Assembly: GCA_000934665.2 (NCBI GenBank)
Contig: JYFJ02003504.1
Span: 1 to 40,722 of the forward strand
DNA from: Catajapyx aquilonaris
Lineage: Eukaryota
Direction: 5' to 3'
Length of the DNA stretch: 40,722 nucleotides
Part shown: piece after piece, positions 3,249 through 38,604 of the stretch
Layout of the letters: each line of letters begins with the position of its first letter
Numbering within the stretch: position 1 is the first letter of the stretch
Program-made: the position numbers and the translations under genes
The notes under the pieces: model-generated
What the model was told of the DNA's origin: nothing
The model's database searches: none
Seen by the model: only the letters and a program-made list of their open reading frames with translations

Positions 3249-6200
3249 CTACGGCAAAAACGGGTAGATGGGGGACATTATAATGCCTTCGGACCTCTTC
3301 CGAGGAGCCAACAACTCTGAAAGTAATACGAGGATGGATAAACCCACTCCGAAAGACCACACGAGGAGAACAGGGGACATCTTGTAAAAGGTCAGGACAC
3401 GGTCATCAGAAGTTAAGCTGCCATCTTCGGAGGCCAAGAGTCGTGCTTGCAGGATGCGACGGAGGAACTTGCGGTGATTGGCGTACTCTTCTCTCTGGGA
3501 ATATATGCCGGATTCCATCATGTGAAGCGATGCTCTTATAATTCGTGGAGCGTCTATTTCATCCCGTGGCAAGGCTAGTCCTGTGTAGGTGGGAAAATAA
3601 TACTCTGGAATCAAATGCACCATCGGATTCCCGTTGTGGTCCACGAAGTTCACCGACTCTCGGCGATAATGGTAGTCTGTCACGACACAAGCAAAATCCT
3701 CGAGAATTACTCTCTCGAAACACTCCTCCCAACGGGACACTGTTTCACTCCTGTCGTACATTTCCTGCGCATATTTCAACCCACTCATCTTGATTCCTTT
3801 CCCGATGAGAATCCTCAGTGCCAGCAATATACCAATGGGAAATTTTGAGGCGTGCAATTCCCTGACTGTGTTGGGAAGGACCTCAGTCTCTGGGAAAGTG
3901 AGCAGAGCGACGATTCTGGACTTGTACAGACATCCAATCACCAATGAAAACAGCAACACGTACGAATAAAAGGCTCGAATAGATGGGTAAGGTGCGAGTG
4001 AAATTGCTTGCTCGATTATTTCGCGCATGATTACTCTCAACATGTTTAGGAGAGACGAAGCTCGTTCATTACCTGTCATAATAGCTGTTCGTATCCTTCC
4101 TTCGACATTTTCAAGCATGTACAATATTATGGACGAGAAAATGACTGTCAGAAACACACCCAACCAAGCTGTTGGGGTGTAAGGCTGGACAATTAGGTAC
4201 CACTTTATGTCTGGAAGAGCATGCCTTCTTATGAAAGAAAATCTAAGGAAAATTATAGGAAACGGTGCAGTGACTGCTCGGATTGACTGGGCAGTAAAAT
4301 ATAATACCATTGTTGAATCAGCCTGCCCATAGAAAACAGAGCCAGCGAAACCGCTGTAAGTACCATTGGGGTAAAAATTATCCAGGGTTAGGTCTGGGAC
4401 GTACACGCGTATTGTTACATTCCGACGTTTTTCTATGTCCAGCAGTGCATACTCTTCCAGAGAGAGGATGTACTTGTCGGGATCTTTGGCCCTCTCTCGA
4501 GCTCTGTTCATGTCAACTTCTTCATGATAAACGGCTCGGTAAATTTTCCCCCACCTATTCGGACTAGCAGGTATCGGAAAGAGATGGTCTCGTCCCAACA
4601 GTTTGTAGAGTGACTGTGGTATGGTTGGGTTGAGCTTGTCCTCTGGCTGGAAACAAAAGTAGCAGACGTTGTGCAGGATTAGTTTCCTCTTCCCTGGAGA
4701 GTATTGCGAGAGGAGCTTGAGGAAGATTCCTCTGGCCGGGTGTGCGAGGAGGATTCTCTCTGGGTCCAGCAGCCCATCGGAGGTGTGGATGAGGGTCGGG
4801 TCGAACTGGTTCCTGAACCTGAAGGTCGTGACTGCGTGCAAGACTAGGTCTGGGAAGTGTCGTGGGTGGGTGGAGAGGAGAAGGTTGAAGGAGCATTTCC
4901 CCCCGTTCCACGTCCGGGAGAAGAGGTCAGGGGGCATGGTCCTGAAGGAGTAGAGCTGCTCCTCCTTCCAGATGACCGGGTGGTCCTCGACGGACACCCT
5001 GAAGGTCTGTCTGTCCATCCGACCAGTGACCACCGGCCGGTACCTGCCCCCCTGGTGACGGGATATCAGACCCTGCATCGCCATCAGGCCAACCCTGTCC
5101 GAGTCGGTGTCCATGTTTAAGAAGCAGTCCGGGTAGTGGGTGTCCAGCAAGTGAAGGACCAGCTCCGTTAACAGGACGTCCTCATCTGGGTCCGGTGTCA
5201 GGGACACGTTCGAGCAGAGAGAATTCATCTGGAAAATGCGGAATTGATAGTGAGATGGTGTTCTGCAGAGATGTCATTATTTTGGTTTTTTTTAGTGTTT
5301 TTATCGAATTACGCCAGGCAGTCATCGTGTGACACGAAATTCGTCACTATTGACACTCAGAAAACGTGGACGTATCTCCACCCAGCGCAGCGGCCGGGGT
5401 TGTAAGTTCTTGAATGCTGAAATGGAGGTTGGCTACAGCAGGCAATGAGGAAACGACGCTCGGAAAACGTCTAATGCGAATTTTTGCGTGGTCGGGTGCC
5501 ACCAGTCATATACAGCCGAGGTGTGCCTGGAACTATGCTCTATACACGTTTCCAGGAGAGCCCTGGGAAAAGGAGTAGCGCTCCTAGTGGATTCAGGCAG
5601 TGAAAATAATCAAGTTTCTAAGTTTGCTTCATGAGAAATGTTGATGAGCACTCCCAAATCACTCCAGGGGCGGGCTACCCCGGGCCGGATCCCCCCATCG
5701 CCGAGCGAAAGTAACAATCAATTTTCGCCCCCAAACAATGAATTGGTCTCATCGCTCGGCGATGACATCGCTGCAATATCGCTAATCAAATCGCTCACAC
5801 GTAAACGCGGATTTAATCCTCGATCGAGTCGGACGTGACCTTCAAGTCGAGGTCATTCTGCTCTATTGCACACCTTCCTGTCACCCCCGTGAGCTTAGTT
5901 GTTCCTAGCCGCCGAAGTGTGGTTTCCGATTTGGCGCTGGTGTCGCTCCACGGTTTCTAAGGCGGTTCCTGGCGGCCGGCTTTGCGAACGTGCTTCGGAC
6001 CCAGCTGCAGGCCTTCAGTGGTTGGCAGTGGTCCTTTTTCATTACAGCTGGGTCAGGAGCAAATTTGCATTGTCGTCCGCCAGGAACCGCCTTAGAAACT
6101 GTGGAGCGACACCAGCTCCAATAACCACACCTCGGCGGCTGGGAGCAACTAAGCTCACGCAAAAGGGGAAGGAGTGTCCTGACCTGAGTATTTTAAGACC

Positions 6201-7643: not shown

Positions 7644-10261
7644 ATGCTGCTCACCTGGCTACTCCTCTTCATCTGGGGGCAGATGCTCCTTGCAGATCAG
7701 GTCAGATTTCATACCAATCCAAGGTCAATTGCTATCACCTATTTATTCATGCTAATTACAAAATTAATGGGCAGTTAACCAGTTCTAGGGCATGGCATGT
7801 ATCTGTAGAGATCTGGAAAGTGTATTACGTCGCTCCCTTGCAAGATGTTCCACAGTACGGCGCAACATGCTTCAGATATTATCATTAGCATATGACTGGT
7901 CTTGTCGTCTCTTAAGGGATTTTATGGCTCAAGTTGTTGACAGCCTGGAGTAGTCTAAACAATGTGTCACACTAAAACCTCGATATAACACTCTCGCTTT
8001 TAACGCCCCATTTTTCCTGATCCTCACAGCAAGTGCGGCACTAAGCATCAGTTGCATATTTTAATAGTTTTTCGGAGGACCCACATATAGATTAATGTCA
8101 TGCATCAGGCCACTTTGAAATCTAATAAGGTAAGGTGTACATTGTCCGTTACTTTTTTCTCACTTGTTAATTTATTACTGAGGGAGTAGCATGCCTTCTA
8201 ACTGCAACTAAACTAAATCCGACCGCCCTTGCCCCGCTTTACCATTGATATATTGAGAAGAATTTTATCGTATCAATTCCGCCTATTCCAGATGAATTCT
8301 CTCCGTCCGAACGTGTCCCTGACACCTGACCCAGATGAGGACGTCCTGTTAACGGACCTGGTCCTTCACTTGCTGGACACACACTACCCGGACTGCTTCT
8401 TAAACATGGACACCGACTCGGACAGGGTTGGCCTGATGGCGGTGCAGGGTCTGATGTCCCGTGACCAGGGGGGCAGGTACCGGCCGGTGGTCACTGGTCG
8501 GATGGACAGCCAGGTCTTCAGGGTGTCCATCGAGGACCACCCGGTCATCTGGAAGGAGGAGCAGCTCTACTCCTTCAGGACCATGCCCCCTGACCTCTTC
8601 TCCCGGACGTGGAACGGGGGGAAATGCTCCTTCAACCTTCTCCACTCCACCCACCCACGACACTTCCCAGACCTAGTCTTGCACGCAGTCACGACCTTCA
8701 GGTTCAGGAACCAGTTCGACCCGACCCTCATCCACACCTCCGATGGGCTGCTGGACCCAGAGAGAATCCTCCTCGCACACCCGGCCAGAGGAATCTTCCT
8801 CAAGCTCCTCTCGCAATACTCTCCAGGGAAGAGGGAACTCGTCCTGCACAACGTCTGCTACTTTTGTTTCCAGCCAGAGGACAAGCTCAACCCAACCATA
8901 CCACAGTCACTCTACAAACTGTTGGGACGAGACCACCTCTTTCCGATACCTGCTAGTCCGAATAGGTGGGGGAAAATTTACCGAGCCGTTTATCATGAAG
9001 AAGTTGACATGAACAGAGCTCGAGAGAGGGCCAAAGATCCCGACAAGTACATCCTCTCTCTGGAAGAGTGTGCACTGCTGGACATAGAAAAACGTCGGAA
9101 TGTAACAATACGCGTGGTCGTCCCAGACCTTACCCTGGATGATTTTTACCCCAATGGTACCTACAGCGGTTTCGCTGGCCATGTTTTCTACGGGAAGTGT
9201 GATGCAGCAGTGGTATTTTATTATACTACTGAATCAATCCGAGCAGTCACTGCACCGTTTCCTCTTATTTACTTTCAATTTACTTTCATAAGAAAGCATG
9301 CTCAGCCAGACATAAAGTGGTACCTCATTGTCCAACCTTACACCCCAACGGCTTGGTTGGGTGTGTTTCTGACAATCATCTTCTCATCCATAATATTGTA
9401 CATGATTGAAAAAGGCGAAGGAAGAATGCGAACAGCTATTATGACAGGTAATGAACGAGCTTCGTCTCTCCTAAACATGTTAGGAGTAATCATGCGTGAA
9501 ATAATTGAGCAAGCAATTTCACTTGCACCTTACCCATCTATTCGAGCGTTTTATTCGTACGTGTTGTTGTTTTCATTGGTGATTGGATGTCTGTACAAGT
9601 CCAGAATCGTCTCTCTGCTCACTTTCCCAGAGACTGAGGTCCTTCCCAACACAATCAGGGAATTGCACGCCTCGAAATTTATCATGGGTATATTGCTAGC
9701 AATGAGGATTGTCATCGGGAAAGGAATCAAGATGAGTGGGTTGAAATATTTGCAGGAAATATACGACCGAAGTAAATCCGTGTCCAGCTGGGGCGAGTGT
9801 TTCGAGAGAGCAATTCGCGAAGATTTTGGCTGTCTCGTGACAGACTACCATTATCGCCGCGAATCGGTGAACTTTGTGGACCACAACGGGAACCCGATGG
9901 TGCATTTGATGCCAGAATATTATTTTCCCACGTACACAGGACCAGCCCGTCCACGGGATGCAATAGACGTACCAAGAATTACAAGAGCATCGCTTCACAT
10001 GCTGGAATATATTCGCAGAGAGAAAAGCACGGCAATCACCGCAAATTTTTGCGTCATATCCTGCGAGCCCGACACTTGGCCTCCGAAGATGGCAGCTTAA
10101 CTTCCGATGACCGTGTCCTGACCTTTTACAAGGTGTCCCCTGTTCTCCTCGTGTGGTCTTTCGGACTAGGTTTATCCAGCCTCGTTTTCCTTTCGGAGTT
10201 GTTGGTTCCTCGGAAGACGTCGAAAAACATTAATGTCCCCATCTACCCGTATTTGCCTTAG
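7644..10261 (+). pseudogene. Divergent ionotropic receptor IR-b, frameshifted (exons 7644-7700, 8292-10261)
   Basis: Exon 1 is accATG, MLLTWLLLFIWGQMLLADQ|GTCAGA, and the acceptor ctattccag precedes 8292. It is a close paralog of IR-a. Alignment shows a 7-bp deletion (ATCCGGC) at ~10006/10007. The shifted frame stops at 10100, and the missing terminal TM lies in another frame ending at TAG 10261. Confidence 0.85.
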
Positions 10262-12156: not shown

Positions 12157-14894
12157 ATGTCGTTCTCCTGCATAGCCTTCATCTGTGCTGCGCTAATGAG
12201 CCTGTCCACTAATGAGGTAAGCATATTCGTGAAGTTCACGTGAGGCATATCAGTTGTGTCTCGGTATGATGTATTATCATGTAATTTGAAATTGTCCTGA
12301 ACGTATTCGAAAAAATGTTTTACTAGATAAAACCACATGATTTCTAGATTGTAACACGTAGAGAGGAATTGTAATCTTGATTTTGCTACAATCAGAGAAA
12401 AAATATATTGTATACAAGAGTATGTAGCGACATTACAAGTGAGGACTAGTTTGTGCAACGGGGTGTAAACATTACAAGCCTCGTGTTCAAATCCATATGT
12501 GCAGGGTATTTCATAATTTAACCACAATAATGCGCGGAAATTTATTGCACCAACTTTTCTGTTTCTATAGGATTTTACAGCAATTTTTTTCCAAGTCTAT
12601 TTTCCCGCTTTTAAAAATATTAATTTAATTACGTGGAGTAATATTTTCATCTGTAATGACCATGCGCTAACTTTCAAGTTTTCCTTTGCAAGGTTAAGCT
12701 GCACGAAGTATTTACGTAACATTTGCTATATCAATTGCAATTAGAGCGGTTCGATAGTTTGTTGGGGCCAGTGTGGGAGTACGTGAACAGGTGCAAACAT
12801 TAATTATGTATTATCTTGTCAGTACACGACATTACTAGAAACGTTGTCGCAAATAGAGTTGGTCCGTATATCTCAAGCAGCGCAAACAAAGTCAGTCTAG
12901 ATATAATGTGCAATCCGCCTAAATTTCTGCAGGTGAATCCTCTCTCTCCGAACGTGTCCCTGACACCTGACCCAGATGAGGACGTCCTCTTAACGGAGCT
13001 GGTCCTTCACTTGCTGGACACCCACTACCCGGACTGCTTCTTAAACATGGACACCGACTCGGACAGGGTTGGCCTGATGGCGGTGCAGGGTCTGATGTCC
13101 CGTCACCAGGGGGGCAGGTACCGGCCGGTGGTCACTGGTCGGATGGACAGCCAGGCCTTCAGGGTGTCCATCGAGGACCACCCGGTCATCTGGAAGGAGG
13201 AGCAGCTCTACTCCTTCAGGACCATGCCCCCTGACCTCTTCTCCCGGACGTGGAACGGGGGGAAATGCTCCTTCAACCTTCTCCTCTCCACCCACCCACG
13301 ACACTTCCCAGACCTAGTCTTGCACGCAGTCACGACCTTCAGGTTCAGGAACCAGTTCGACCCGACCCTCATCCACACCTCCGATGGGCTGCTGGACCCA
13401 GAGAGAATCCTCCTCGCACACCCGGCCAGAGGAATCTTCCTCAAGCTCCTCTCGCAATACTCTCCAGGGAAGAGGGAACTCGTCCTGCACAACGTCTGCT
13501 ACTTTTGTTTCCAGCCAGAGGACAAGCTCAACCCAACCATACCACAGTCACTCTACAAACTGTTGGGACGAGACCACCTCTTTCCGATACCTGCTAGCGA
13601 GAATAGATGGGGCATAAAATACCGAGCGGTTCATTACGAGGAAGTTGACATGAATAGTGCTCGAGAGAGGGCAAAAGATCCGGACAATGTCCTGTCAGCT
13701 GTAGAGTCTGGAATGTTGGAAGTAGAAAGACGCATTAATGTTACATTTGAAGTTTATGTCCCAACTTTCTCTCTGGATGACTTCTACTCAAATGGAAGTT
13801 ACACGGGAATTACGGGAGCTATTGCTTACGGAAAGGCAGACATTGCGATGATTAACTTTTACACATTTGTGTCCATTAAAGCTACAGTCCTTCCGTCTCC
13901 CGTATTTTACCTTCACGTGTCTTTTTTTAGAAGGCATCCAAGGCCGGACATAAAGTGGTACCTTATAGCACAACCATACACGGCTATGTCATGGCTATCG
14001 GCCTTAACAACCGTCATTATTTCATCCGTTACACTGCACCTATTAGAGAAGTGTGAAAAGAAGCTAGGTAATCCGAGCATGCATCTTGTTTCGTCTTTTG
14101 TAAATAAGTTGCGACTAATAATGCGAGAGCTTATCGAGCAAGCAGATTCAATACCTCCTTACCCATCCCTACGAGCTTTTTATTCATACGTACTAGTTTT
14201 CACTCTAGTCTTCGGATGTTTGTACAAAGCCAAAATATTCGCCCTGCTGACATTCCCTGAAACGGAAATTCTGCCCAACACAACTCTGGAATTGTACCAC
14301 TCTAAGTTTACATGGGGCACAACACTTGCTCTTTACATTCTACTTGGAGCTGGGATAAAGAGAAGCCAGGTGGAATATTTGCAGGAAATGCATAAGATGA
14401 CTCAGCCAGTGAATGACTATCGCGATTGCTTCGAAAAAGCGATTGAAGAGGACTTCGCTTGCATTTTGAGCGATTATCTTTACGAGAGAGAATCAGTCAA
14501 ATTCGTGGACCACAAAGGTGAGACGAAGGTGTATTGGATTCCGAACGATTTGAACTCGATTTTCATTTACACTGCTCCTGCGTTCCCACGAGATGCAATA
14601 AATATTCCTGCTTCTCTGACTGGAATACTTCGCATGACTGAAGCGAATTTATTCAAGCAAAGGGAGGATTCTGTCAACCATCTCCAATTTTTGCGTTATT
14701 ACATGCGAGCCAGAAAGTCGGCGGAATATGACGGAACAGCACTTGAAGATGACCGGGTATTGACTCTGTACAAAGTCAGGCCTATTTTTTACGTGTGGTC
14801 ATTTTGCATTGTCATGTCCATCTTGGTATTTTTGTTCGAGTTTGTTGCTAGAAAGAGAACTACAAATAATGTATATCCAGGATACTTGCCGTAA
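12157..14894 (+). CDS. Divergent ionotropic receptor IR-c, 2 exons: 12157-12216, 12933-14894; ~673 aa
   Basis: Exon 1 is MSFSCIAFICAALMSLSTNE|GTAAGC (hydrophobic signal, phase 0). The acceptor tttctgcag before 12933 sits at the same position as in IR-a/b. The ORF is intact, with S1 (NGSYTGITGAIAYGKADIA), QPYT..W, M1, pore EQ, M2 (SLRAFY...LYKAKIFALLTFP), S2 and a terminal TM. Confidence 0.9.
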
Positions 14895-16332: not shown

Positions 16333-17096
16333 ATGAAGAACCTGCTCTACCTGGCTGTGGCTACGGCCCTATTTGTAGGGACATTTGCACAAACGGTATG
16401 AATTGTTGCAATCAAATAATAATTTTAAAATAGATCCAGCTGATGAGTTGAATTATTGTTGCAGTGTCCATCTAAAGAGACGCTGATGAAGGAGTTTGAA
16501 GTATGCAAGGTGGATGTGGCTGGACCAGAAGCCAAAGATGCCAGCATCATGGAGCTCTGGCAGGAACATGGATCGGTATGTTTCGGATGCAAATATCATG
16601 CAGCATAATACATAATTTTTTTCGATCATTACAGTGCATTGTGAAGTGCATGATGAACAAGTTCGGAATTGTAAGTATGACTCTCTGGTTTGGTGTTGCT
16701 TAATCTAATGTGTATGTGCATTTGTGCGCAGCTTAATCCGGATGGTATGATCAACAAGGAGTATGCGACCACATTGGCCAAGGACTGCAAGGCTGTGCAT
16801 ACCGACCTGGCAGACAAGATCGAGAAGGCAGAGCAGTGCATGGCACAACATGGTACGTCACACACTCATTTTTGCGCATGTTTTGCATACAAATGATTTA
16901 CAAATGAGTTGATTTTTGACCACTTTTTTTTCAATTTGGGGCCATATGTGGTGCGCGTTACAATTGGTGCTATGCAATTGTTGTCTAACTTGGAAATTTT
17001 TCAACAGCCGACGCCATCGATCCGTCCAAGCCCAAGTGCTCCGGATACCATGAGCTCATCTCGTGCGTCATGCAGCATTTCAGGAAAGGGGCGTAA
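16333..17096 (+). CDS. OBP-like secreted protein A, 8 Cys, 139 aa; exons 16333-16395, 16465-16575, 16635-16670, 16732-16852, 17008-17096
   Basis: All introns are GT-AG with phases 0,0,0,1. Translation: MKNLLYLAVATALFVGTFAQT-CPSKETLMKEFEVCKVDVAGPEAKDASIMELWQEHGS-CIVKCMMNKFGI-LNPDGMINKEYATTLAKDCKAVHTDLADKIEKAEQCMAQH-ADAIDPSKPKCSGYHELISCVMQHFRKGA. It has a signal peptide and the OBP hallmarks C-X3-C, LxxDG and C-X8-C. TATA at 16277, AATAAA at 17233. Confidence 0.85.
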
Positions 17097-17808: not shown

Positions 17809-18611
17809 ATGAAAAACCTGTTGTACCTCGCCTTGGCTTCGGCCATCTTTGTTGTGGCCATGGCAGACAAGGTGAGTTAACAGTGCAGCTTTCAGGATTT
17901 GGGCGAGGTGACCTTTGACCTTATGGTTTCAGTGCCCAGAAAGAAAAGAACTCAAGACAGAGTTCGAATCCTGCAAGCTTCAGGTGGCTGGCCCTGACGC
18001 AAAGGATATCGACATCATGACTCTGTGGCAGGAGCACGGATCGGTTTGTACATAATAATTATATGCACACAAAATATATGTAACTAATTCAGGAGATACA
18101 CAATAATGATGAGCATTTTTTTAAATAATTTCAGTGCATCGTCAAGTGCATGATGCAACAATTCCATTGGGTAAGTACATGTCACAATATTGTACAATGA
18201 AGACCTGTTTTGACTTGTAAAATATCCATACATATTTGCATATTATACTTGAAACGTAGAATTTACACAACTAGCAGCAAATATACACTTTCGCTCTAGG
18301 TAGGTAGTAGTTGAGGGTTTGTTTCTTAAGAGTAAGCTACTGCATCTAAAATTAGTCGTAAAAACACGAGTTGTTGGAGACTTATTACTTAAGCACTGTA
18401 ATATTACAATGCTTAAGTAATAACTAATAAGTCTCCAACAATTTTCATCACGTTTATGACTAATTGGTTGATTTTTGCTGTTTCTCATCTAACAGCTAAT
18501 TTCAGTCTACACTAATTAGCAATCATGTAGGGAAATTAATTATTAATTAGATTATACACAAATGAATAAATTTCATATGCATAGCCACCTTCTCTATTGA
18601 ACTATATTGCA

Positions 18612-18646
<35 letters not shown>

Positions 18647-19263
18647 ATATATTTAACGAATTACCTAATGCGCAATGACTTACAATTTGCTCCTGACAGA
18701 GCATTTCTAACAATATTGCTGATGATCGACGAATACTTACCTTACTTTACATTTTACTACGATTAACTACTTATTATTCATACAATATTGTAATAAAATC
18801 ATACAGTGAATGGATTTCATACCTTTAAAACACGTAATTTCTGCATAAAAGTTTATTAATATCGAACCAACTGAAAGCTGTTATCATTGATTTGTTAGAC
18901 AAAAGTGCAAATTAGTACTAATCACACATTTTTCTTTATGAATCTAATTAGTTGGACGCAGACGGCAAGATCAAGAAGGAGTGGGCCATCGCCATGGTGC
19001 AAGACTGCAGGAAGGTTCATTCTGACCTGGCGGAAAAGATCGTGAAGGTCGAGCAATGTGTCGTCGATCACGGTCAGTATATAGAGAAAAATTCCACAGA
19101 ATTTTAAAGTCTCAAAGTGTTACTGCAACCTGGCCTGATATTTATTTATATTTCTCATGAAAAAAAAAAAAAAGCTGACAACGTGGACCCGACCAAAGAG
19201 AAGTGCGCCGGATACACCGAAATCATCATCTGCATGATGAGCCAGTTCAGGAAAGGAGCGTAA
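17809..19263 (+). CDS. OBP-like secreted protein B, 8 Cys, 139 aa; exons 17809-17871, 17933-18043, 18135-18170, 18952-19072, 19175-19263
   Basis: Exon sizes and phases match gene A. Translation: MKNLLYLALASAIFVVAMADK-CPERKELKTEFESCKLQVAGPDAKDIDIMTLWQEHGS-CIVKCMMQQFHW-LDADGKIKKEWAIAMVQDCRKVHSDLAEKIVKVEQCVVDH-ADNVDPTKEKCAGYTEIIICMMSQFRKGA. AATAAA at 19464. Confidence 0.85.
18612..18644. repeat. (ATT)n microsatellite in OBP-B intron 3
   Basis: Direct reading. Confidence 0.9.
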
Positions 19264-20690: not shown

Positions 20691-20697
20691 TATAAAA
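20691..20697 (+). promoter_or_regulatory. TATA box of OBP-like C
   Basis: TATAAAA starts 84 nt upstream of the ATG, in the same GCATATAAAA context as gene A. Confidence 0.55.
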
Positions 20698-20774
20698 TCA
20701 AGAGGAGTCTACTTTCCGGCTCTTATCTTTTTTTATTTGCCATTTTATCTGAGACCGGACAAGAGAGAAGCAGG

Positions 20775-21700
20775 ATGAATCCTCTTCTGGTGTGCTTCAT
20801 CGCACTTTTTGGCACCCTCGCCTACGTGCAGGTCAGTTATGTAACACCCTGTTGCCACACATCAATTAATCGTCATTAGAAAGTAACGCAAATTGTAACT
20901 CAACGTGGAATCAGCTATATTTATGCTACGGTACAATCTGTCTAAACTGGCTATATTTTAATTACTTTGTGATCTGACAGTCAGTTGAAGTGCACAAATA
21001 ATTGGGTTTACTACAACCTGTGTAGAAAGTAGCCTACTAGTAAGGAGAGTAATTAAAAAAAATTCAATTGAACTGTTTCAGGCGGAATGTCCATCTCTTG
21101 AGTCGATGTTTGCTATTGGAATGGACTGCAAAATGAAGCACAAGGAATTGGGAGTAAGTGAAAAAAAAAATACAGTTTCTTTTAAGTAAAAAGGAAAACT
21201 AATATTTAAAAATCCAATTTTGATTCCAGTGCATTGCGCAGTGCTTCTTGCAAGAAATGGAACTGGTAAGAGCATGAGCCTATAGCTGCCTGTATGTAAT
21301 ACGTTGTGAATTAAAATGCGAATATGTTTATTTATAGACGACGCCTGATGGACAGCTGGACAAGCCAAAGCTGGAGAAATTCGCGAAGGCCTGCGAAAAA
21401 ATTGCTGCAGAGCATGGAGTCGACCTTCCTACGATCAAGACTTGCATCCTTTCAAAACGTAAGTTTCGCAAAGAAAATCGCTCATTATTATTTCAGCAAA
21501 ATTACGAGCTCATTTTGCATACCAAAAAATGTTTCAAGCGACATTTTATTCAATAACCAATGAGAATATTTCATTTTTAATTTAAGTTTGATTACCTCTT
21601 ACAAATTTTTTGTTTTGTTTCAACTCCAGCTGTGGACACGAGTCTGCCAGATTGCGGAGGTTATGCTTTCATGGTCGCCTGCGTCTCTCCGCAGAAATAA
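20775..21700 (+). CDS. Short OBP-like secreted protein C, 8 mature-region Cys, 118 aa; exons 20775-20831, 21082-21153, 21230-21265, 21338-21458, 21630-21700
   Basis: GT-AG introns with phases 0,0,0,1; exon 3 is 36 nt and exon 4 is 121 nt, as in A/B. Translation: MNPLLVCFIALFGTLAYVQ-AECPSLESMFAIGMDCKMKHKELG-CIAQCFLQEMEL-TTPDGQLDKPKLEKFAKACEKIAAEHGVDLPTIKTCILSK-PVDTSLPDCGGYAFMVACVSPQK. TATA at 20691, AATAAA at 21814. Confidence 0.82.
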
Positions 21701-22479
21701 GGTGCTAAAATATTCATCCGTTGTCGTCTAGGTTCACTAATGTCAAAAATAACAATTAAAAATATATATCATCGGGACTCAATCATCATTACAGCTTCAT
21801 TCGAGCGTCAGTTAATAAATTTGCTATTTTGTGCAATCCTACTTATCTTATTTCCTGATTGATTACTGGCAGAGGTGTCCCAAAATGTCTTTTTTTCAGC
21901 TTAGCAATTTTAGACACTAAAGCTGCTTATTTGGAAGCAGCTGCTTCATTTTTCTCATAACAAATTGATGTTCAATCATAATTGTTCCAATGATCAGCCA
22001 TTTGTGATCGGAAATTCTTTTAAATTTAGAGCTCGAATCCATCTGACTAATTCTGGCGGCCAATAACTACTAAAAATAACTATTCAAAAGCAGTCTAAGC
22101 AGTTTAGTGCCAAATATTGGCAGCTTTCAAGGGGCATTGTTTATTTAAAATTCTCGTGTTCTCATTTTGTTGATTACGTTTGGACATGATGTGTAATTTG
22201 TTTCCTTCCGGTCACGCAAAACATGATCGTGACATACAATGACATTACGTGATCGCAAAAAAATTATGTCAACCCATTTCACATATCAAAAGCATCCCCC
22301 CAGCAGAGCAACACAAAACACAGGGGAAAGGTAATCGCAGGAAAAAAACAATCACTGCAAACCTATACTGCATTTGGTTATGACCTTCAGGTGGGTCATG
22401 TTTGGGAAATAAAAAGAGCAAGTACACTGCGTAACAAGTTCATTTCATTGGTATAACCCACAGCAGGGAGTGGGTCGAG

Positions 22480-23090
22480 ATGAACCTCATTTACGTGTGT
22501 CTGGTAGTGATTAGTGTCACCTACGTGCAGGTGAGTTCACTGGTTTAATTATTCGCATAAGTGCACTTTATGTGATTGTTGTCACAATTTTTTCAGGCCG
22601 AATGTCCGTCCATGGAATCACTTATCGCGATCGGAGCCGAATGCAAAGCTGAGCATAAGCACATGGGGGTATGATCTCTGTACAGTATAGTACCGGTATG
22701 TCCTTCACTGACTCAACAGCAATTATTTATTATTGTAATATGTTCATTGCAGTGTGTGGCCAAGTGCTTCCTGGACAAGATCGAAATGGTGAGTCTTCGC
22801 ATTCTTCTCTTACAGCGACTGTAACATACAGTACATTTTCAGACAACGCCTGACGGTCAGCTGGACAAGAGCAAAGTTGACCCGTTTGTGGCCAAGTGCA
22901 AGGAAATGGCTGCCGAACATGACGTCGACCTTCCCAAGCTTGCTGCTTGTGTCTCGCGGAAACGTAAGTTCATGTGGTGCACAATTACCAACCACTAAAT
23001 GCGCTAATTGTGCGTGTATACTGTACAGGTGTGGACACGACCAGACCAAACTGCGCCGGATACCTCTTCATGCTGGCCTGCTTCATGTGA
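22480..23090 (+). CDS. Short OBP-like secreted protein D, 8 mature-region Cys, 113 aa; exons 22480-22530, 22597-22668, 22753-22788, 22843-22963, 23029-23090
   Basis: Paralog of C with the same phases. Translation: MNLIYVCLVVISVTYVQ-AECPSMESLIAIGAECKAEHKHMG-CVAKCFLDKIEM-TTPDGQLDKSKVDPFVAKCKEMAAEHDVDLPKLAACVSRK-RVDTTRPNCAGYLFMLACFM. AATAAA at 23100. Confidence 0.82.
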
Positions 23091-23639
23091 ACCCATTGTA
23101 ATAAAAACAGTTGCAACGATGTCTCTCAAGACGAGATGACTGCAAGTACTTTTTACTTACCGTTTCAGGTATGATCCATTGCCTCCAGAACTGTACACAC
23201 ATCACACACACACACCCACTATAAGATCACGAATCGACTGAACAAACAAAGCCGAGTGTGTGATGAGACGATTAGATTTTGGTCCCATTTTAACACCTAC
23301 CTCGTATTGCTCATTTAAACAGCTATAATTAAATGCCTATTTAGGAGCCAATAGGACTATCTTTTGAATTAGATTTGTCCCATTTTTACAGGGTGGCCCA
23401 AAGTTTTCAAAACTAATATCATATTAATTGTTATCCAAATATTCAGAGTTCACGCGAATTACTAAATTAGAATTGAAACAGTTATTTTTCCACCGCATAA
23501 AACTAATGTTTAAAGTCTTTAAACTACGATTACTCATTTAACGTCTATAAAATATTACCAGCCAATTTAGGGGCCAAAGGAACACCTTCCACGTGGTCAA
23601 ATTAGTAATTAAAGGCCAGTGAGATATGGTACTGTACTC

Positions 23640-25529: not shown

Positions 25530-25847
25530 AACTTTAGTAGTACTTTAGTAGTACTTTAGTCATACTTTAGTAGCACTATAGTAGTAGTACTTTAGTAGCA
25601 CTATAGTAGTAGTACTTTAGTAGCACTACAGTAGTAGTACTTTAGTAGCAGTACTATAGTAGTAGTACTTTAGTAGCAGTACTTTAGTAGTACTAGTACT
25701 ATACTAGTACTTTAGTAGCAGTACTATAGTAGTAGTACTTTAGTAGCAGTACTATAGTAGTAGTACTTTAGTAGCAGTACTATAGTAGTAGTACTTTAGT
25801 AGCAGTACTATAGTAGTAGTACTTTAGTAGCAGTACTATAGTAGTAN
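25530..25847. repeat. Minisatellite (~28-bp unit TAGTAGCAGTACTATAGTAGTAGTACTT) ending at an N
   Basis: Tandem TAG/TAC-rich units. The N at 25847 suggests an unresolved or collapsed array. Confidence 0.9.
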
Positions 25848-29009: not shown

Positions 29010-29882
29010 CTACAGGAAGAAGGGGAGGAAAAGAGAAAAAGCGCCAGGTTAGATCAAAGGATGGCCAAAATACTTAGCTTTTTTATGTTTTGTTTGTTTT
29101 TTTGTAATGTTTTTTTAAATACATAAATGGCAAACCGAATTCAGCTCAGGCAGGAAATAATTTCTGGCGGAGAAAAAAAAATTAAACGCGAAATTATACT
29201 TTCGTGTTTTCCTTCCTAACTTTTTTTTTTTCTCCTGGCGCCAGCACACACACGAGTTTTTTCTTTTCTTTCAAAAACCAAAATTTAAAGGGCAGCATCT
29301 CGCCTTTTTTTTGGAACATAAATTACAAGGAAATGTATTCAAAAATGTATCAAAGTCAAGAGTTCTACTTGTCGATGAACAATTTGTCGTTACACTCGCT
29401 CCAAGAAGTGCATGCATGGTGGTGTTTTTCACTTACTAAAATTACGTTCCTTCATCATCATCTTTTAAATATGATAACGTTTAAACAAACGTGTCCACCT
29501 AAGCAAACAATACAAAAGAATAAAGCAGAAATCAAAAAAGTGGCCACCAATATGAAACGCAACAGGAACTGAAATAAAAATGAACAAGTACGTGGTGCAA
29601 CCGGACACAAGTGATCACTCATTTCCATCAAACTAAAATAAAAAGGAGTGGAACAAAAAAATTATACACATATCAAATACTGAACCAAGAAAACGTGGCG
29701 TCAGGGGGAATGGTGAACGAAACCAAGTAAATATATTTTTGTGAGGGAAGGGGGGAGGGTTCGCAAATGTTGTCGTCCAGCAGAAACAAACCACAGGCCC
29801 AAAAAACCCAAAAATCAAAAACAGGCAGAACCAAAAGAGGTGAGTATACACAGGAGACGAGTCGTAGCTACTGGGCCTCTAC

Positions 29883-32800
29883 CTGCTGAAGTACTACAAG
29901 TTAGTCCCGGCTCGGGATGTCGGTGATGGGTGGTTGTGGTGGAGGTTGTGGACAGAGAGGTGCCAACAGGGTCTCCGGAAGATGAAGAAGAAGAAGAAGG
30001 GTGGTAATGGTGGTGGTAATGGTGGGCTGTGGGACGGTCCTTGGGTTCATCAGTCTCCGAGTCTCGAGTCAGTGTGTCAGTCTTGGGTGCAACTCGTACC
30101 ACCTTCTTTCTTCGAACAACTCTCTTCACAGTCCCGCCTTCGTGGATTGTCTCTTCCTCTTCTTCCTCTTCCTCCTCTTCCGTCTCCTGCTTTTGAGCCA
30201 TTCGTCTAAGGTACGCCTCGAGTTGAGCCTCAGGGTCAGACCCTGCGTCCGTCTCGACCACAAACCTCTTCTGGACCACGCGGGTCACATGAACATTCCC
30301 ATGCTCATCCGTCTCTTCCTGCTCCTGGATGAGTTCTCCAGGTCTGAACCTTTCGATGTAGTCCTCCACTTGTTTCTGGGCGTCCGGACCTGTGAAGGTC
30401 AGTCTCTGAATCTCAGGAGGCATTGCCACTGTGCGGTGTATCTCCTGGGCATACTCCGGGTCGTCGTCGCGAGAGTCTCTCCTGTAATATGTTCCTTCAG
30501 CACCGCGAAGAAGACCTTCGACCACTTTGTCAGGGTCAAGGTGCATCATGTGACCTTCGGATCCGGCGGCGGCTGCGGCGGCTGCAGCTGCTTGATCCAG
30601 AGCATCAGTGCTGGATACCATAGTGTTGGAACCTCCACTGGTGAAACTGGAGGACATGACAGAGTCGGTCTCACACTGGTAGGTAGCGTGTGTGGCCGTG
30701 GAGGAACTAGGCTCTAATGAATCGGTGCTTCCGGTCATTAGGAGGTCACGAGGCAACCCCATGGCCTTATCACCACTGTCGTCCTTCCCACTAGAGCTGA
30801 GGTCTCCTTCGCGCCCACTGGAGCTGCTTTGATCCTGAGCAGCAGCCATGTCTTTGGGAGAATCCGAATCAGCGTCTGGCTCTGAAGGTGGCGGTCTGGA
30901 GGCGCCTTCGACCTCTTCGACCGCCTCGCCACGTCTGTCCTCCTCGATCGAGTCCACACTACGGGTCAGGCCTCCAGAGTAGGCGTCTCCGGACCTGCAT
31001 GGACCGGCGGTGGTTGAGGCACTAGCGCCCAGCTCCAGGGAATCGGTGGAGGTGGTCATCACTCTGGAGGGAAGGTCGAGCGAGTCTGTGGACGTGGTCA
31101 TCATCTTCGTGTGCATCTCAATCGAGTCGGCCGAGGTGGTCATGGCTGACCTCTTGGCCGCTCCTTCCATCTCTATTGAATCTAACGAGGCTGTCATCGG
31201 ATCATCCTTGGTCTTTCCTGGGTCCAAAGAGTCTATGCTTTTGCCCATCGTGTCTTCCTCTCTGGTTCCGGCCTGGTATTCGATTGAGTCTGCCGAGGTG
31301 GTCATCACGTCTCCGGATTTTGTTTTCATCTCCAGCGAGTCTGTACTGGATTGCATCTGAGGGGCAGGAGGTTTGTCGCCCGATGATTCTACAAACGAAT
31401 CGTCGTCGTATGACCTGCCTTTCAGTGACTCGATGTCAAAGTGGGTGATGGTCGAACTTTGACCCGAGCCGCCGCTCATGGTTCGCGACGCAGGCAAGTG
31501 CGGTATGGTACGGAAGCCCTCAGGAGGAAGAATCTGATGAGGCAAGCTCGAGTCCAGATCCAGATCAGGCAAGTGCTCCTCTTCTAGGGAATCAGCATCA
31601 CCATCATCCCTCCCAATGGACTCGGTCTTATCCACGAGACTGCTGGCTGTGTCCCCTCCTAAGCTTTCCATCACTTCTCCAAGTGGAAGACCCAGAGGTC
31701 CGCTGCTGGTCGTCATGCTGCCGTCCCTGTCAAAATTCTCCACATTGGTCTGCGCCTGCCTGATTATCTCGTCAATCTCGAACATTCTCTTCTCGTAATC
31801 GTCTCCTTCTGATTCGTTATCAGTGTCAGTCGCTTGACCCGCTTCGGACAGAGTCTCTCTTCCCTCAGACTCGGACAGCTGGCTCTCATGTCCCTCCTCG
31901 ATTTCGGACAAGATGGCCTCTTCCTCCTGCGCTTTCTGCTCTATGGTCTCAGCCTCTATGCAGGCGCTTTCCAGTCGCTCGAACTCGTTCAGCGACGACA
32001 AGGACACATCGTCGCCCTGCCCACTACGACTTGGACGACGCCCGTTTAGCGAGTCCTGAGAACCAGAGCTTTGCCTTCGAACCGTGTCCATATCGAACTC
32101 CTGCTCAAGTTTCTCAAACTCCTGGAGGGAGCCCATGGATATGTCATCATGTTCACCGCTCCTTGTGAAAAACTTGCGTCCGGCCAAGACATCATACTCT
32201 GGAGTGCTGCTCAGAGACTCGGCTTTGCAGCGATCCAGATCTCTCCTTTCCAGGTCATCAGACTCGTCTTCCTGAGTCTCCTCAATGTCTTCTAGAGGCT
32301 GCCTGTAAACCTGGTCTGGCTCCGCGTCATAGCCCATGTCATACCCAGGGTCACCCACAGGCCTGTCAAATTGCATCTCCATCCATCGCTTGCTGTCTTG
32401 CACTTCGTACTCGTAATCCTCTGGATAACCGGACCGTTCAAATGACATTTCGTATGCATAAGCCGCATCGTCCCTTTCGGTTGGGACAGCATCGTCGTGC
32501 TCTAACATCTCTGTTTCTTCCTCTGAAGGAAAGAACTTGACGTCTGTCGGCTGTGCGGAGAGTGGAGCAGGAGAAAGAGGCTCGTCCGATTCCGTCAGTG
32601 GACGGCCGTCTTTGACCGACGTGTCTGTATCTTCCTCCAGGACAACCACGTACTCATCCGCCGCCATGTCAGTCAACTCCGATTTCTCGATCATCTCAAA
32701 CGATTCAGTTGACAATGACTTGAGCTGCATCTGACCTTCGCCAGATCCGTCTGAACCTCCTGGAAGATGCTGCTCCTCGGTCAGCATTGTCATTCCCATC

Positions 32801-35800
32801 CGTTCCAACACTTCTGCCTGCAGCTCAATTTCAGGTTCTTCCATAATAGCGTCGCCCATGTCCTCTTCCTCCAGAACATACTCTCGGCCCTGGTCAGTTT
32901 CAGTCTCCGACGACTTTTCTGACGCGTGGCTCGATCCGGAAGCTGGAGTCTGAGGAGTCGACTTACTGCTGGCACATTCCGGAAAGTCCTCCTCTCTATC
33001 CAGATCTGGGTACCTGAAGTCCTTGTGCACTGTCGGGCTGTGTTGGGTGATGGTAATGTCAGGAACATTCACATCAGTCAAGGGGGCCAGAGTGAGCCAG
33101 GTTTTCTCGTGAGGATACTTTCCTCTAGTTTCCAGCTCATGTTTCTCCTCAGGTTCTTCCTTGAGGGGGTCCAATGGCCGCTTCTCGTGACTTATTTCAA
33201 TCCGTTCGTCGTGATACACAGCGGCCTCAGACTCGGCCAGTTCATGCGACTGCCACTCGCGACTGTCACCGTGGGTCGCATATTCGGCTGCCCTACTACA
33301 GGCCCCTGAGTACTCAGACTCCAGCTCACTCACGCTCGCCTGCGCTTCTGATGAGAATTCGGGAGTGTCGTCCTTTATCTCATAGTCTTCGACAGGTTCT
33401 GGAGTGCTGGGACGCTCCAGAGGCTCTTCCTGATGCACCTCACTGGTCATCTCCATAATCTCTGTGATCTCAAGCTCAGGGTGGTCGTCGGAAAAGGCAA
33501 CGTCAGCCGACACTGGTCTTAGGTCGGTGTCGGACACGATGGAAGCAGGTCGACTGTCCTCTCTCTGCTCTGACTCTGGCTGTTCCATATCTGCCGCTGC
33601 TTCCTTCTCCTTCTTTCGTCCTCTAAGCAGCGCCTGGTCCGCTTCCGTTTCATACGACTCCTCCTCAGCTTCGTCCACATCTTTCATCTCCATGTCCAGA
33701 CCTTCCTTGGTTGTCAGGCTTTGCTCGGGCTCCTTGTATTTGTCGCTTTCTGGAGCGTCTTCAGCGGACGTGACGACTGACTCTTCGGGTCTTGGTCTGC
33801 TCATGGTGGTGGTGGTGACTGGGCCTTCATGCCTGGCAACGGACTCGGTCATCACCAGCTCGCGAACAAAGGAGTAAGTTCCGTCGCTGACACTCTCGTT
33901 CCGCCTGTGTCGACGTCGCTCGACGCGTTCGCCAGCTGGTGCCGTCCTTTCCCCTGTCGGAGCGTCGGTTTCTCCGCCTTGTGCAGGACCGCTGGCGTCG
34001 GCAGGACGGTCCATGTCGTCGTACTCGGGAACATAGTCCACCTCCGTCGGTCCGTTGCTGTGAGCGTACACTTCTTGATTGTCGTCGTCGTCGTCGTCGT
34101 CGTCCTCCCCTCCTTCCGTGGTGTCGGCGTATGATTCGGAAGTGACCTGGGTGCAGACGCTGGGGCCGCCGTCGCCCTCACCGCTGGGGATAGAGGACGT
34201 GGTAATGGTGACTGATTGCATGGCCAGGTTGGGTGGGGAGGGTGGGTAAGTAGTTGTGCTGACCTCGCTGGTGGTTGTGGTGCTGGTGGTGGCGGCTGAC
34301 GTCGTCGACGCCTCTGAGGTGGGAAGGAGGGCTGTGGAAGCGGTGGGCGACGCTGGGAGGGACGGCTCCTGGCGACCCTCAGCAGTGCTCAGCTGCTCCG
34401 ATGTGGCCGAGCTGGTCATGGCGCTCAGCTGCTCCACCAGCTCAGAGTCGGTCAGCGACGCCTGGTGGCTGGCCGCCTGTATCACCGTCCGAAGCGTCGA
34501 TTCGGACAGGCTGGACAAACTGCTGTGGCCTCCGTCGTCAACGCTTGAACTCAGCGTCACAGACATGTCGTCAATTGACTCCCCCATCACCGGAGCTTCG
34601 GGCTGGGACATTGGCGATTCCGAATGCGGACTCTCGGTGTGGATGGGTTTCGGCTCAGGATGGAAGGTCATCTCGATTGACCTCTTCATTTTGGGTGCAG
34701 GCGACTCCTCAAATGTTGCAGGGTGGAAGTCGCCGGAGGTTTTGTGGGCCGAGGTGTCTGCAGTCGGCTCGGTCGTCATTCGCGGTTGGAAGCCTTCGGA
34801 TATCATTTCGAAAGAGGTGGGCATATCCTCCTCCCTGGGCGTCAGAGCCCGTATGACGTGAGGAGGTATTTCCCTCTCGTACGGCTCCACGAACCTGTCT
34901 TCCGCCGCCTCGTCGTCGTCCATGACAGGAGTCTCAACCTCCCTCTCCATGTCTCTCTCCAGCTCAAGAGCGGACGGAACGAGGGTCTCTGAGGTTTCGC
35001 TGGAAGCTTCTACACTAGCTAGATGCCCGGAACTCTCAGAGCTCTCGATCGACTTCATGGACTCCCTTGAGCTGAGGGAGCTGACAGCAGTGTGGTACTC
35101 CTGAGACGTGGTGGTGGTGGCGACGGAGTGGTCTTGAGACGTGAGAGCCGACTCGTAGTCGGAAGAGCCAGCTGTCCCTGAACCGGCGATTAAGGCTTCG
35201 ACGTCTGATGAACATGGTCTGCTCATGGTGCGACCGCTCTCTGAGGTCTGCTCGAACGAGTGGTACCGACTTTCGCTGGAGCTGGACCAACCTTCGAAGT
35301 CGGCTCCAGAGCGTCGGTCCGCCTTAAGAGCGATGCCTCTCTCGTCTCTAGATCCCGAACTAGTGGAAGACTCAGCGTCAGATTTTCTGTCCGCTTTTGG
35401 GGATTTGTGGCTGCGAATCACAACGACCGTGTCTTTAGCCTCCAACCTCTCCTCTGCAGTGGAGTACTCTGTCGAAGATCTCTTGTGCTCTTCGTCAGAA
35501 GAGGTCCGTGTCAACCTGTCGTCTTTCTTCTCAACGACTTCGGTGGAAAATCTGTCAGTCTTTTCTTCTGACTTTTCCACTTTCTGGCTGACTGAATGAA
35601 CCTTCTCTCGGGTCTCTGAACCATTGTCGCGGAAGGTTGTTGTTTTTCTCGAGCTCTCCTCCGATTTTTTGGATTCGGAAGCAGTAGCTTCCTTGTGCTC
35701 TTCCTCCTTCGCATGTGACTCTACGGTCCCTTCTGGACTTTCTTCAACAGAGGCCTCCTGCACCCTAACAGAAATCTTCTCCCTGTGATCACGCTTTTCT

Positions 35801-37946
35801 TCGACAACAACACTCTCCTCCTCCTCCTCCTCTTGTTTCACGTCTGTAAATGTGACTGTTCGTTTCGTTTTAGTGTCTTTGCTTTCCTCTTGAATCACTT
35901 CGGATGCTCCCTCTTCCTCTTTCAGATGCCTTTTCTTCTCATCAGAGCCCTTTCGGAATTCGCGCTTCAAACTGTCATCCTCTGGCTTTTTGTCGTCCTT
36001 GGGAGCAGGCCCAGTTCTACGCGGAATTTTGGACTTTCGCTTTGACAAGTCTTCCTTGGTCACTGTCGTGGTGACAGTCGTCGTCTTCGTCACTTCCACT
36101 TTTTCTGGCTCTACCGTAGGCAACTCCTTTTCTTCAATTTCATGAATGGTTTCGGAAGTTTTTCCAAATGCTTCCAAGCGAAACTCGAATTCTGATGGAG
36201 ACTGTTGCACCTTCATCTCCTTGTGCTCGCTAAGCTCTTCTTGAGCCGCGCCTAATGATTCCCTGACTTCCGCTAAAGTTCTCCTCACGGTGTCTTCTTC
36301 AGTCATCATCCGCAGCTTTTCCGCCTGCGTTTCCGGTGGAGACATATCCCCACCGCTGCTTCTCAACTCTTCATCCGTTATATCCACGCTCTCGGTTTCT
36401 CCACGAGTTAGCCTCTTACGAAGTTCAACGGCTTCCTTCACCATTACAGAGTGAAGAGTTTCCTTCTCCAATTCAGCAGCCTTTTCCACGACCTCCTCGG
36501 CCATTTCAAACTCCGTGGCGACCTTTGCATCTGGCGTGACCCGAGGAAATATTGGCTCGGAGGATATCAAATCACTCCTCTTCGCCACCTCAGCCTCTAT
36601 CTCGTCCACCACTTCTTCCGCCAACTTCCTGGCCTCCTCCTGAGACAACCTCCTACTGTCTAACGCCACTGGAGACAGGCTTTCTCTCGCGTCCTGTTCC
36701 GTCGCATCGTCCTCAAACTCTGCCCCTTCAACAGGAGCCTCCTCACCCGAAAACTCTACCACTGCTTCGGGTACACCCGACTCTGGCTGGTCCTCCACCG
36801 GTACCTGCCAGAGTGTGTCAGGCAACTTTTCGACCGGATAGTGTATCTCCGGCTCTTCAGAGCGAGACTCCAAGGGAGGAACGACTTCCAAGACTTTGGC
36901 AGTCTCACCCACAAACTTTCCTTCAAGGATCACTGAGGTTTCTCCTCTCAGAGGTTCAGCCTTTATCGGCGGTTCAGCCTTTATCGGAGGTTCAGCCTTT
37001 ATCGGAGGTTCAGCCTTAATCGGAGGTTCGGCCTTTACCGGAGGTTTCTCCTTGTCAATCGGGAAGTCTTCAGGAGGCTCCGGACGTTTGCTTTTGTCTT
37101 CAGGCGGATGGATAGGAGGCTTTGGAGACGGAAGATCACCCTCGTATTCGGGAGACAGAGCCTTCTCCTCTGGGGCTAACGATTCTACGTGCTCTTCAAG
37201 CTCGCGAATAAATATTTCCGATTTGATCTGCCTGCTGATCATAACTTCCGAGTCTACCTCCTCAGTCTGATCAGGCGGTAAGGACTTGTGCTCGGGAGAT
37301 GGCTCTTCAGTCTGAGAGAGCTGCTCTGTCAGCATCTCGCGCTTAATTTGAGCCTCGAACAGCTCCTTCTTTTCTTTCACTCCTTTGAAGGCAATGTCCT
37401 CAGGCTCAAATACGTCTTCGGCAGGGGCTTCTTCCACAGATTCTTCGAGTGTGTCGATCTTTTCTGCGCCAAGGAACGCCCTGTTTTCAAACGCCACTGG
37501 AGACCCGTACTTTGCAAGGTACTCGGCCTCTGAATCGGTGCTGCCGACCGTCCTCTTCTTGGCATCTGCATCTGACTCGATGTCCGACTGACTCTCGCTT
37601 CGACTACTCTTGGTCAGACTGACCTTCCTAACGGTCGTGGTTGTCTCCCCTTTGCTCATGGACTCCTGGCTCTTCTGCTCCCAGAACTTCTTCCGCTCCG
37701 AGTAGCTCTGGATTGTCTCCTGCACTCCTTCTTCGGGCTCGTCAGTCTTGCCAGCATCCACCTGAGTCTGAGAAATTTCGCCTATGGATTGAGCAAAAGT
37801 CTGGGGTGATGCAGTGGTGGGTCCCGAGTCAGGAGATTTGGTTAGGGGTTTTTCTGGGTGGGGGGATCGCAGTGGTACATAGCTTTCCTCCACCTCGCGG
37901 TCGAGCCGTCCAACCCCCACGGGCTCCCCAGGTGTTAGTCTGCTCT
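29883..37946 (-). CDS. Ank2: Giant coding exon (8064 nt, 2688 codons) of a probable giant ankyrin (UNC-44L/Ank2-like) isoform
   Basis: The open frame covers 2701 aa and is E/S/T/D-rich and low complexity. The acceptor has a perfect TACTAAC branch point (37980-37974) and ends ...cctattctag; the donor is CAG|GTAGAG at 29883; both ends are phase 1. The paired SL[QN]EFE[KR]LE motifs, MTTSxDSL repeats and FTGPDA resemble my recollection of giant ankyrin tails. Ankyrin repeats, ZU5 and the death domain are not in the window, so the symbol is provisional. Confidence 0.72.
36951..37047 (-). repeat. Coding 18-bp tandem repeat (KAEPPI x~5)
   Basis: GGTTCAGCCTTTATCGGA units on the plus strand; protein PPVKAEPPIKAEPPIKAEPPIKAEPPIKAEP. 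Confidence 0.9.
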
Positions 37947-38604
37947 CTAGAATAGGATGACAACAGACGAGCCGTTAGTATCTACCTAGCCACTACAAAT
38001 AGCAAAAAAGCTAAAGTGCAGCAGAACAAGAAACTGGTTTTTTGTTGGTGGTGTTTTAGTTTTAAAGGGGGGCTAGGCGACAGACAAAAATAATTAGAGA
38101 TGAGTTCGCAAGAAGAATCGAAACTCATGAGCGAAGTTAACAGCACTGTCTTTACTTGTTAAAGTACAAGCTGTTAGAGAGAAAAAGAAACGAGGGGGCG
38201 TCGTCACCTTTTTACGTCCTACTGTGAAAGCTGACATTCAAAGGATATCATGAATGTTAGTGAATCCCTTGTGCAGCTGTGAGGAAAGCTCGTCAATCAT
38301 TAGTGCACATGTCTACAGACTATGTTAGGGCATGGTTCCACACGTGTCTTGAAACCTGTATGCATCGGACCGCCACAGTCCCGTTCGAACGGTCGCAAAC
38401 AAACTCTACTTGCAAAAGTGTACAGAAGCGAGGATTCATAACATAAGCACGGCTACAAGCGGTTCCCCCCTCTCCCCGAATGAAACCCGAAAAATTATTA
38501 AACATCAAAATTTACAAAATTTTATTGAAGCAGCTAACTCTCGCCAGTAACGGATAAATTGACAAGAGAGAGAGACAGAACAAGGCCAGCAGGGAGTTAA
38601 GTAC

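Follow-up and report, generated by a model that had tools for sequence, protein, structure and literature searches.

A tandem pair of short OBP-like genes in Catajapyx aquilonaris that may encode carriers without helix 2

Classic odorant-binding proteins (OBPs) are six-helix bundles, in which the disulfides C1-C3, C2-C5 and C4-C6 surround one hydrophobic pocket. Helix 2 of these proteins locates within the segment between C1 and C2. The six cysteines follow a motif printed as C1-X15-39-C2-X3-C3-X21-44-C4-X7-12-C5-X8-C6 (PMC5958050), and a mature length of 120–140 residues is quoted for insect OBPs (PMC8222343). Members of the family are described as often sharing about 15% identity (PMC8269058). 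For Collembola, a few OBPs are on record (PMC4145409).

The chelicerate OBP-like proteins, VdesOBP1 of Varroa and the TurtOBPs of Tetranychus, are described with six cysteines at other positions, paired as C1-C6, C2-C3 and C4-C5, and with no equivalent of the classic C2-C5 bridge (PMC8222343; PMC8269058). In VdesOBP1, a disulfide fastens the extended N-terminus to the rest of the protein (PMC8222343; PMC8269058). The solved structure of VdesOBP1 (PDB 7NZA) contains five helices, a loop in place of helix 2 and a wide open cavity (PMC8222343). A five-helix OBP is thus already a known idea with a solved precedent. In the Plus-C OBPs, the printed motif permits C1-X8-41-C2, of which the lower bound already records a C1-C2 spacer of 8 residues (PMC4605488). 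Plus-C OBPs are further defined by additional cysteines, past C4 and past C6, and by a proline directly behind the latter, Minus-C OBPs by the loss of C2 and C5, and atypical OBPs by 9–10 conserved cysteines with an extended C-terminus (all as given in PMC12495806).

Here we analyze a window of 40,722 nt from Catajapyx aquilonaris, which is the whole stretch of DNA examined (assembly GCA_000934665.2, contig JYFJ02003504.1). Between 16.3 and 23.1 kb of the window, we rebuilt four tandem genes from the sequence, all on the plus strand, referred to as A, B, C and D. Each gene is split into five exons; all 16 introns, four per gene, have canonical GT...AG ends, and the exon plan and intron phases are identical across the four genes. 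Exons 3 and 4 have the same length in every gene, and the last intron is always in phase 1. The GC content is 0.50–0.53 in coding sequence versus 0.29–0.37 in introns. A TATA-like box precedes every ATG by 55–84 nt without an intervening ATG, and a polyadenylation signal is found 10–201 nt past every stop. When the window was translated in six frames and scanned with an HMM built from A–D, only the exons of these genes matched, so the window holds no fifth copy or relic.

Genes A (16333-17096) and B (17809-19263) are the long-form paralogs and serve as comparators. Gene A has exons of 63/111/36/121/89 nt and a 23-residue spacer between its second and third cysteines. Gene B has the same exon sizes and is 60% identical to A. 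Intron 3 of gene B, at 781 nt, is the only long one in the cluster (54–250 nt elsewhere). It carries a palindrome of about 70 nt that is close to perfect (18371-18441, plus strand), made of two overlapping inverted repeat pairs that are 95% complementary, and an (ATT)n run lies next to the palindrome at about 18615-18645. The palindrome may be a small inserted element.

Gene C (20775-21700) has exons of 57/72/36/121/71 nt. Its TATA-like box (20691..20698) precedes the start codon by 84 nt, and no other ATG intervenes. Translation starts in exon 1 (20775..20831, 57 nt), which encodes the greater part of the signal peptide and ends at the donor GTCAGT. Exon 2 (21082..21153, 72 nt), bounded by the acceptor ...tttcag and the donor GTAAGT, completes the signal peptide and provides the first and second cysteines and the 8-residue linker. 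Across intron 2 (21154..21229), exon 3 (21230..21265, 36 nt) holds the C-X3-C pair. Exon 4 (21338..21458, 121 nt) holds the fifth and sixth cysteines and is followed by the phase-1 intron. Exon 5 (21630..21700, 71 nt) encodes the C-X8-C pair and then 5 more residues before the stop codon. An AATAAA signal (21814..21819) lies 114 nt past the stop, with a further ATTAAA at 21755.

Gene D (22480-23090) has exons of 51/72/36/121/62 nt, and its TATA-like box (22409..22416) lies 71 nt upstream of the ATG. Exon 1 (22480..22530, 51 nt) contains the start codon and signal peptide, and exon 2 (22597..22668, 72 nt) the first and second cysteines with the 8-residue linker. After intron 2 (22669..22752), exon 3 (22753..22788, 36 nt) again carries the C-X3-C pair. 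Exon 4 (22843..22963) measures 121 nt, and exon 5 (23029..23090, 62 nt) ends the gene with the C-X8-C pair, followed by 2 residues and the stop codon. An AATAAA at 23100 is only 10 nt downstream of exon 5.

Three large intronless paralogous ORFs are positioned directly upstream of the OBP-like cluster, at 3249-5273 (minus strand), 8217-10100 (plus strand) and 12804-14894 (plus strand), with 627–696 codons from stop to stop. They give weak, sub-threshold Pfam matches to Lig_chan (E 0.0005–0.003) and weak PDB matches to kainate/AMPA receptors (E 0.001–0.006), on the basis of which the three ORFs are probably divergent ionotropic receptors. In a word-index protein search, no relative scored. Residues of about 100–200 are 97–99% identical among the three copies, whereas later parts are 45–65% identical. 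Such a distribution of identity suggests either gene conversion or strong constraint on an N-terminal module. In the second copy, the C-terminal end falls in another frame (ORF 9776-10261, plus strand), while the other two copies have the same tail in frame, which is a sign of a frameshift, of faulty assembly or of a pseudogene. The receptor-like and OBP-like genes are adjacent within 20 kb.

On the far side of the cluster, a single open frame of 2719 codons runs on the minus strand from 29815 to 37974. It encodes a very acidic, low-complexity sequence rich in Ser, Thr and Glu, in a GC-rich region (0.51–0.59) with strong AT skew. Pfam yields no match to this frame at E up to 0.01, and it probably represents one giant exon belonging to a larger gene. 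The window contains a single N, at position 25847. Neither tRNA genes nor Rfam families at gathering score were found in the window (1-40722).

The proteins of C and D begin with a hydrophobic stretch of 18–20 residues that ends in VQA, and we placed the signal-peptide cleavage after this motif by eye. With the cleavage at this site, the mature proteins have 98 residues in C and 95 in D, versus 120 in A and B. The proteins of C and D are about 10.5 kDa, and the mature pI of A–D is acidic (5.3–6.3). Eight cysteines are present in each mature protein, and all eight columns are invariant across A–D. Their spacing is 12, 8, 3, 25, 16, 12 and 8 in C and D, and 12, 23, 3, 25, 16, 14 and 8 in A and B. 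A preliminary description of this DNA had given C and D the pattern C-X12-C-X8-C-X3-C-X25-C-X16-C-X12-C-X8-C, mature lengths below 100 residues, and an end 2–5 residues past the last cysteine. We find these spacings to be exact, and the lengths agree, as do the tails of 5 residues in C and 2 in D. One correction is needed, as C and D each have a ninth cysteine, located in the signal peptide.

The preliminary description had also stated that the spacer of C and D is 15 residues shorter than that of A and B, with the loss confined to exon 2. The alignment bears this out. Relative to the long pair, C and D show one clean 15-column gap between the invariant second and third cysteines, which lies entirely within exon 2. 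This exon is 39 nt shorter in C and D than in A and B (72 versus 111 nt), and in C and D it begins two codons before the first cysteine. A smaller difference of 2 residues shortens the loop between the sixth and seventh cysteines (C4-C5 of the classic motif) in C and D.

A short spacer might also arise from an incomplete gene model, and the preliminary description had called for a search for a missed in-frame exon between exons 2 and 3. The lengths it gave for intron 2, 76 nt for gene C and 84 nt for gene D, are correct. Inspection of the DNA shows that intron 2 leaves no place in either gene for an in-frame mini-exon with introns of at least 40 nt on both sides. Reading on past the intron 2 donor, an in-frame stop appears after 3 nt in D and after 33 nt in C, and a longer exon 2 common to both genes is therefore excluded. 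There are only two weak extensions, and the genes do not share them. In C, the sole alternative is a weak GTTTCT donor adding 7 residues, which is absent from D. In D, it is a weak upstream acceptor adding 11 hydrophobic residues, which is absent from C. A missed exon in intron 2 of C and D is thus excluded on the DNA alone.

The two short genes are 54% identical at the protein level. By Nei-Gojobori counts, pN is 0.27 and pS is 0.70 between C and D (z = 7.1), compared with pN of 0.25 and pS of 0.63 between A and B (z = 6.6). The resulting ratio for C and D is about 0.17, a rough value, as dS is near saturation. The excess of synonymous change indicates that C and D are under purifying selection. 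The preliminary description had argued that both paralogs are intact, diverged and selected rather than decaying, and had proposed a dN/dS calculation; the open frames, the divergence and the counts uphold that argument. We also considered that C, D or both are unexpressed relics or wrong gene models, so that the short spacer would exist in no protein. This explanation draws on the fact that no annotated protein with the exons of C or D was found in the protein collections. It has to contend with frames open from ATG to stop, canonical splice sites at 8 of 8 introns, promoter and polyadenylation signals, a pN far below pS, and the stops in intron 2, and we regard it as highly improbable. C and D are real genes, predicted to be transcribed separately, which encode small secreted proteins and belong to the local four-gene family A–D.

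Whether this family is OBP is a separate matter, and the argument starts from the cysteines. Six of the eight fit the printed classic OBP motif (PMC5958050). In our test, we widened the C4-C5 range to 14, which is needed for A and B, whose spacer of 14 exceeds the printed X7-12. The spacings in C and D are 3 for C2-C3, 42 for C3-C4 (25+1+16), 12 for C4-C5 and 8 for C5-C6. Eight randomly placed cysteines fit the motif in 195 of 200000 trials at a length of 120 residues; at 98 residues with a relaxed C1-C2 range, 320 of 200000 fit. The composition of A–D is also helix-favouring by a crude Chou-Fasman estimate.

Homology searches were carried out with single exons of at most 40 residues, and their blanks are therefore weak evidence. 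Among seven exon-sized pieces of A–D, none matched PBP_GOBP (PF01395) in Pfam at E up to 10. The names that did appear, DeaD_dimer, E3_binding and DUF7249, are sub-threshold and attributed to chance. PDB profile searches with the alignments of exon 2, exon 4 and exon 5 returned no OBP, all matches having E of 0.13 or worse, and 7NZA was not retrieved by them. The EF-hand proteins, the ribosomal protein L32 and one hypothetical protein found in these searches are chance matches. In word-index searches restricted to longer proteins, exon 4 of C gave 3 word-sharing candidates and the four-gene exon 4 alignment gave 655, of which none scored. The exon 4 alignment likewise found no relative in an exhaustive profile search; the sole match of that search, a 767-residue repeat protein with five matches over 20 columns, is unrelated. 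A language-model look-up of exon 4 of A named no family, with a best score of 0.86 and recognition below the useful level. Three metagenome matches to the exon 4 alignment of C and D (L001–L003) come from contigs of 56–65% GC and cover only a stretch of 18–25 residues, and we set them aside as chance.

These results can be read in favor of a different origin, in which A–D are a lineage-specific, secreted cysteine-rich family that is not homologous to OBPs (for example cuticle, seminal, immune or signalling peptides). The fit to the motif would then be coincidence or convergence, and C and D would be loop-length variants. No exon is linked to PBP_GOBP or to a solved OBP by profile or sequence search, and the exon queries found no relatives in large protein collections. 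In addition, the long and short pairs (A/B versus C/D) are only 21–27% identical, so the family evolves fast. Such an origin must nevertheless account for exact C-X3-C and C-X8-C pairs in the right order, with 42 and 12–14 residues between, which random placement rarely produced. The proteins also agree with OBPs in size, in their signal peptide and acidic pI, and in a composition that favours helices, and queries of up to 40 residues are too short for a family in which identity is often about 15% (PMC8269058). We consider a non-OBP origin unlikely, though it keeps an appreciable chance. Our preferred reading is that A–D most likely belong to the insect-type OBP family or stand very near it, an assignment made from the cysteine spacing alone.

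If A–D are OBPs, the meaning of the short spacer depends on which cysteine corresponds to the classic C1. When the second cysteine is C1, the C1-C2 spacer of C and D is 8, outside the range of 15–39. When the first cysteine is C1, the spacer becomes 21, inside the range. A and B are inside it by either choice, with 36 or 23. It is therefore conceivable that C and D are compact six-helix classic OBPs, in which the N-terminal cysteine is C1, the additional pair consists of the second and fifth cysteines, and all helices are retained; so counted, they satisfy the motif printed in PMC5958050. We notice that the first cysteine stands only 2–3 residues past the predicted cleavage site, leaving no room for helix 1 before C1, which makes it the less likely C1. 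The second cysteine lies about 15–17 residues into the mature protein. Under the first-cysteine numbering, moreover, 21 residues must hold the end of helix 1, helix 2 and the start of helix 3, whereas in C and D the crude Chou-Fasman estimate shows a single helix running unbroken to the second cysteine, without another helix distinct from it. We find this compact six-helix form quite unlikely.

With the second cysteine as C1, the stretch missing from C and D matches the position of the classic helix 2, as the preliminary description had proposed. That description had supposed a five-helix variant with an altered or open pocket and a possible use outside olfaction. In A and B, this 15-residue stretch opens with Gly-Pro and continues as an amphipathic helix, according to the same crude estimate. 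Provided that this numbering holds, the 15 residues absent from C and D would be the helix 2 segment.

On this basis, we propose the following model. The proteins A–D would have the six classic cysteines plus an extra pair, of which one is at the extreme N-terminus and the other between C3 and C4. The ancestral gene of C and D would have lost 15 residues of exon 2 in one in-frame event, and with them the helix 2 segment; an 8-residue turn would now link helix 1 to helix 3. The product would be a smaller five-helix carrier, probably all-helical with four disulfides (helix content and pairing as predicted), whose hydrophobic pocket may be more open or shallower and whose fold may resemble that of the solved mite OBP without helix 2. 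We judge it rather probable that C and D are OBP-type carriers that lack helix 2 and have a pocket that is probably more open or smaller. From the sequence we infer OBP homology, helix content, disulfide pairing and pocket shape, and the same would hold for any ligand or tissue assigned to C and D.

Compared with classic insect OBPs (PF01395), C and D are likewise small, secreted and acidic, and such genes also lie in tandem clusters. The C2-X3-C3 and C5-X8-C6 spacings are exact, and C3-C4 and C4-C5 measure 42 and 12. The differences are eight cysteines instead of six, with the extras at the N-terminus and between C3 and C4, and a C1-C2 spacer of 8, with the second cysteine as C1, versus the 15–39 printed in PMC5958050. 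Moreover, the mature proteins have 95–98 residues versus the 120–140 quoted for insect OBPs in PMC8222343, and the tail after C6 is nearly absent.

C and D resemble VdesOBP1 in lacking a segment of the size of helix 2 and in having a cysteine at the extreme N-terminus. They differ in having eight cysteines with the insect-type C-X3-C and C-X8-C spacing, and do not show the cysteine arrangement of the VdesOBP1 type. With the Plus-C OBPs, they share a cysteine number above six and a spacer of 8, which the motif of PMC4605488 permits. In contrast, the extra cysteines of C and D stand before C1 and between C3 and C4, and C6 is followed directly by Val in C and by Phe in D, with the protein ending 2–5 residues after C6. 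Under the definitions of PMC12495806, we rejected C and D as Plus-C OBPs for the wrong positions of the extra cysteines and the missing proline past C6. They are not Minus-C OBPs, as both C2 and C5 are present in all four genes, nor atypical OBPs, as they have eight mature cysteines and a tail of 2–5 residues.

The mixture of chelicerate-like and insect-like characters allows a more speculative idea, in which the eight-cysteine proteins of this genome are a surviving intermediate between the five-helix OBP-like proteins of chelicerates and the six-helix OBPs of insects. C and D would then keep the older state, namely the absence of helix 2, a disulfide-tethered N-terminus and the insect-type C-X3-C and C-X8-C bridges, while the helix 2 of A, B and the insects would be a later insertion in exon 2. 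We hold this idea to be very doubtful. If true, it would supply the common precursor of chelicerate and insect OBPs, which the Tetranychus paper describes as not yet found (PMC8269058).

On present evidence, the proteins A–D are small and secreted and form an ordinary family, which evolves fast, has an unusual loop length and is placed among the OBPs by cysteine spacing. If they are OBPs, C and D would represent a natural, selected OBP fold of about 95 residues in a hexapod, without the pocket-closing helix of classic OBPs, and would offer a data point on the relation of the chelicerate and insect OBP folds. Their full-length sister genes A and B lie only a few kilobases away, and the two pairs would thus provide a clean paired comparison for the role of helix 2 in ligand binding.
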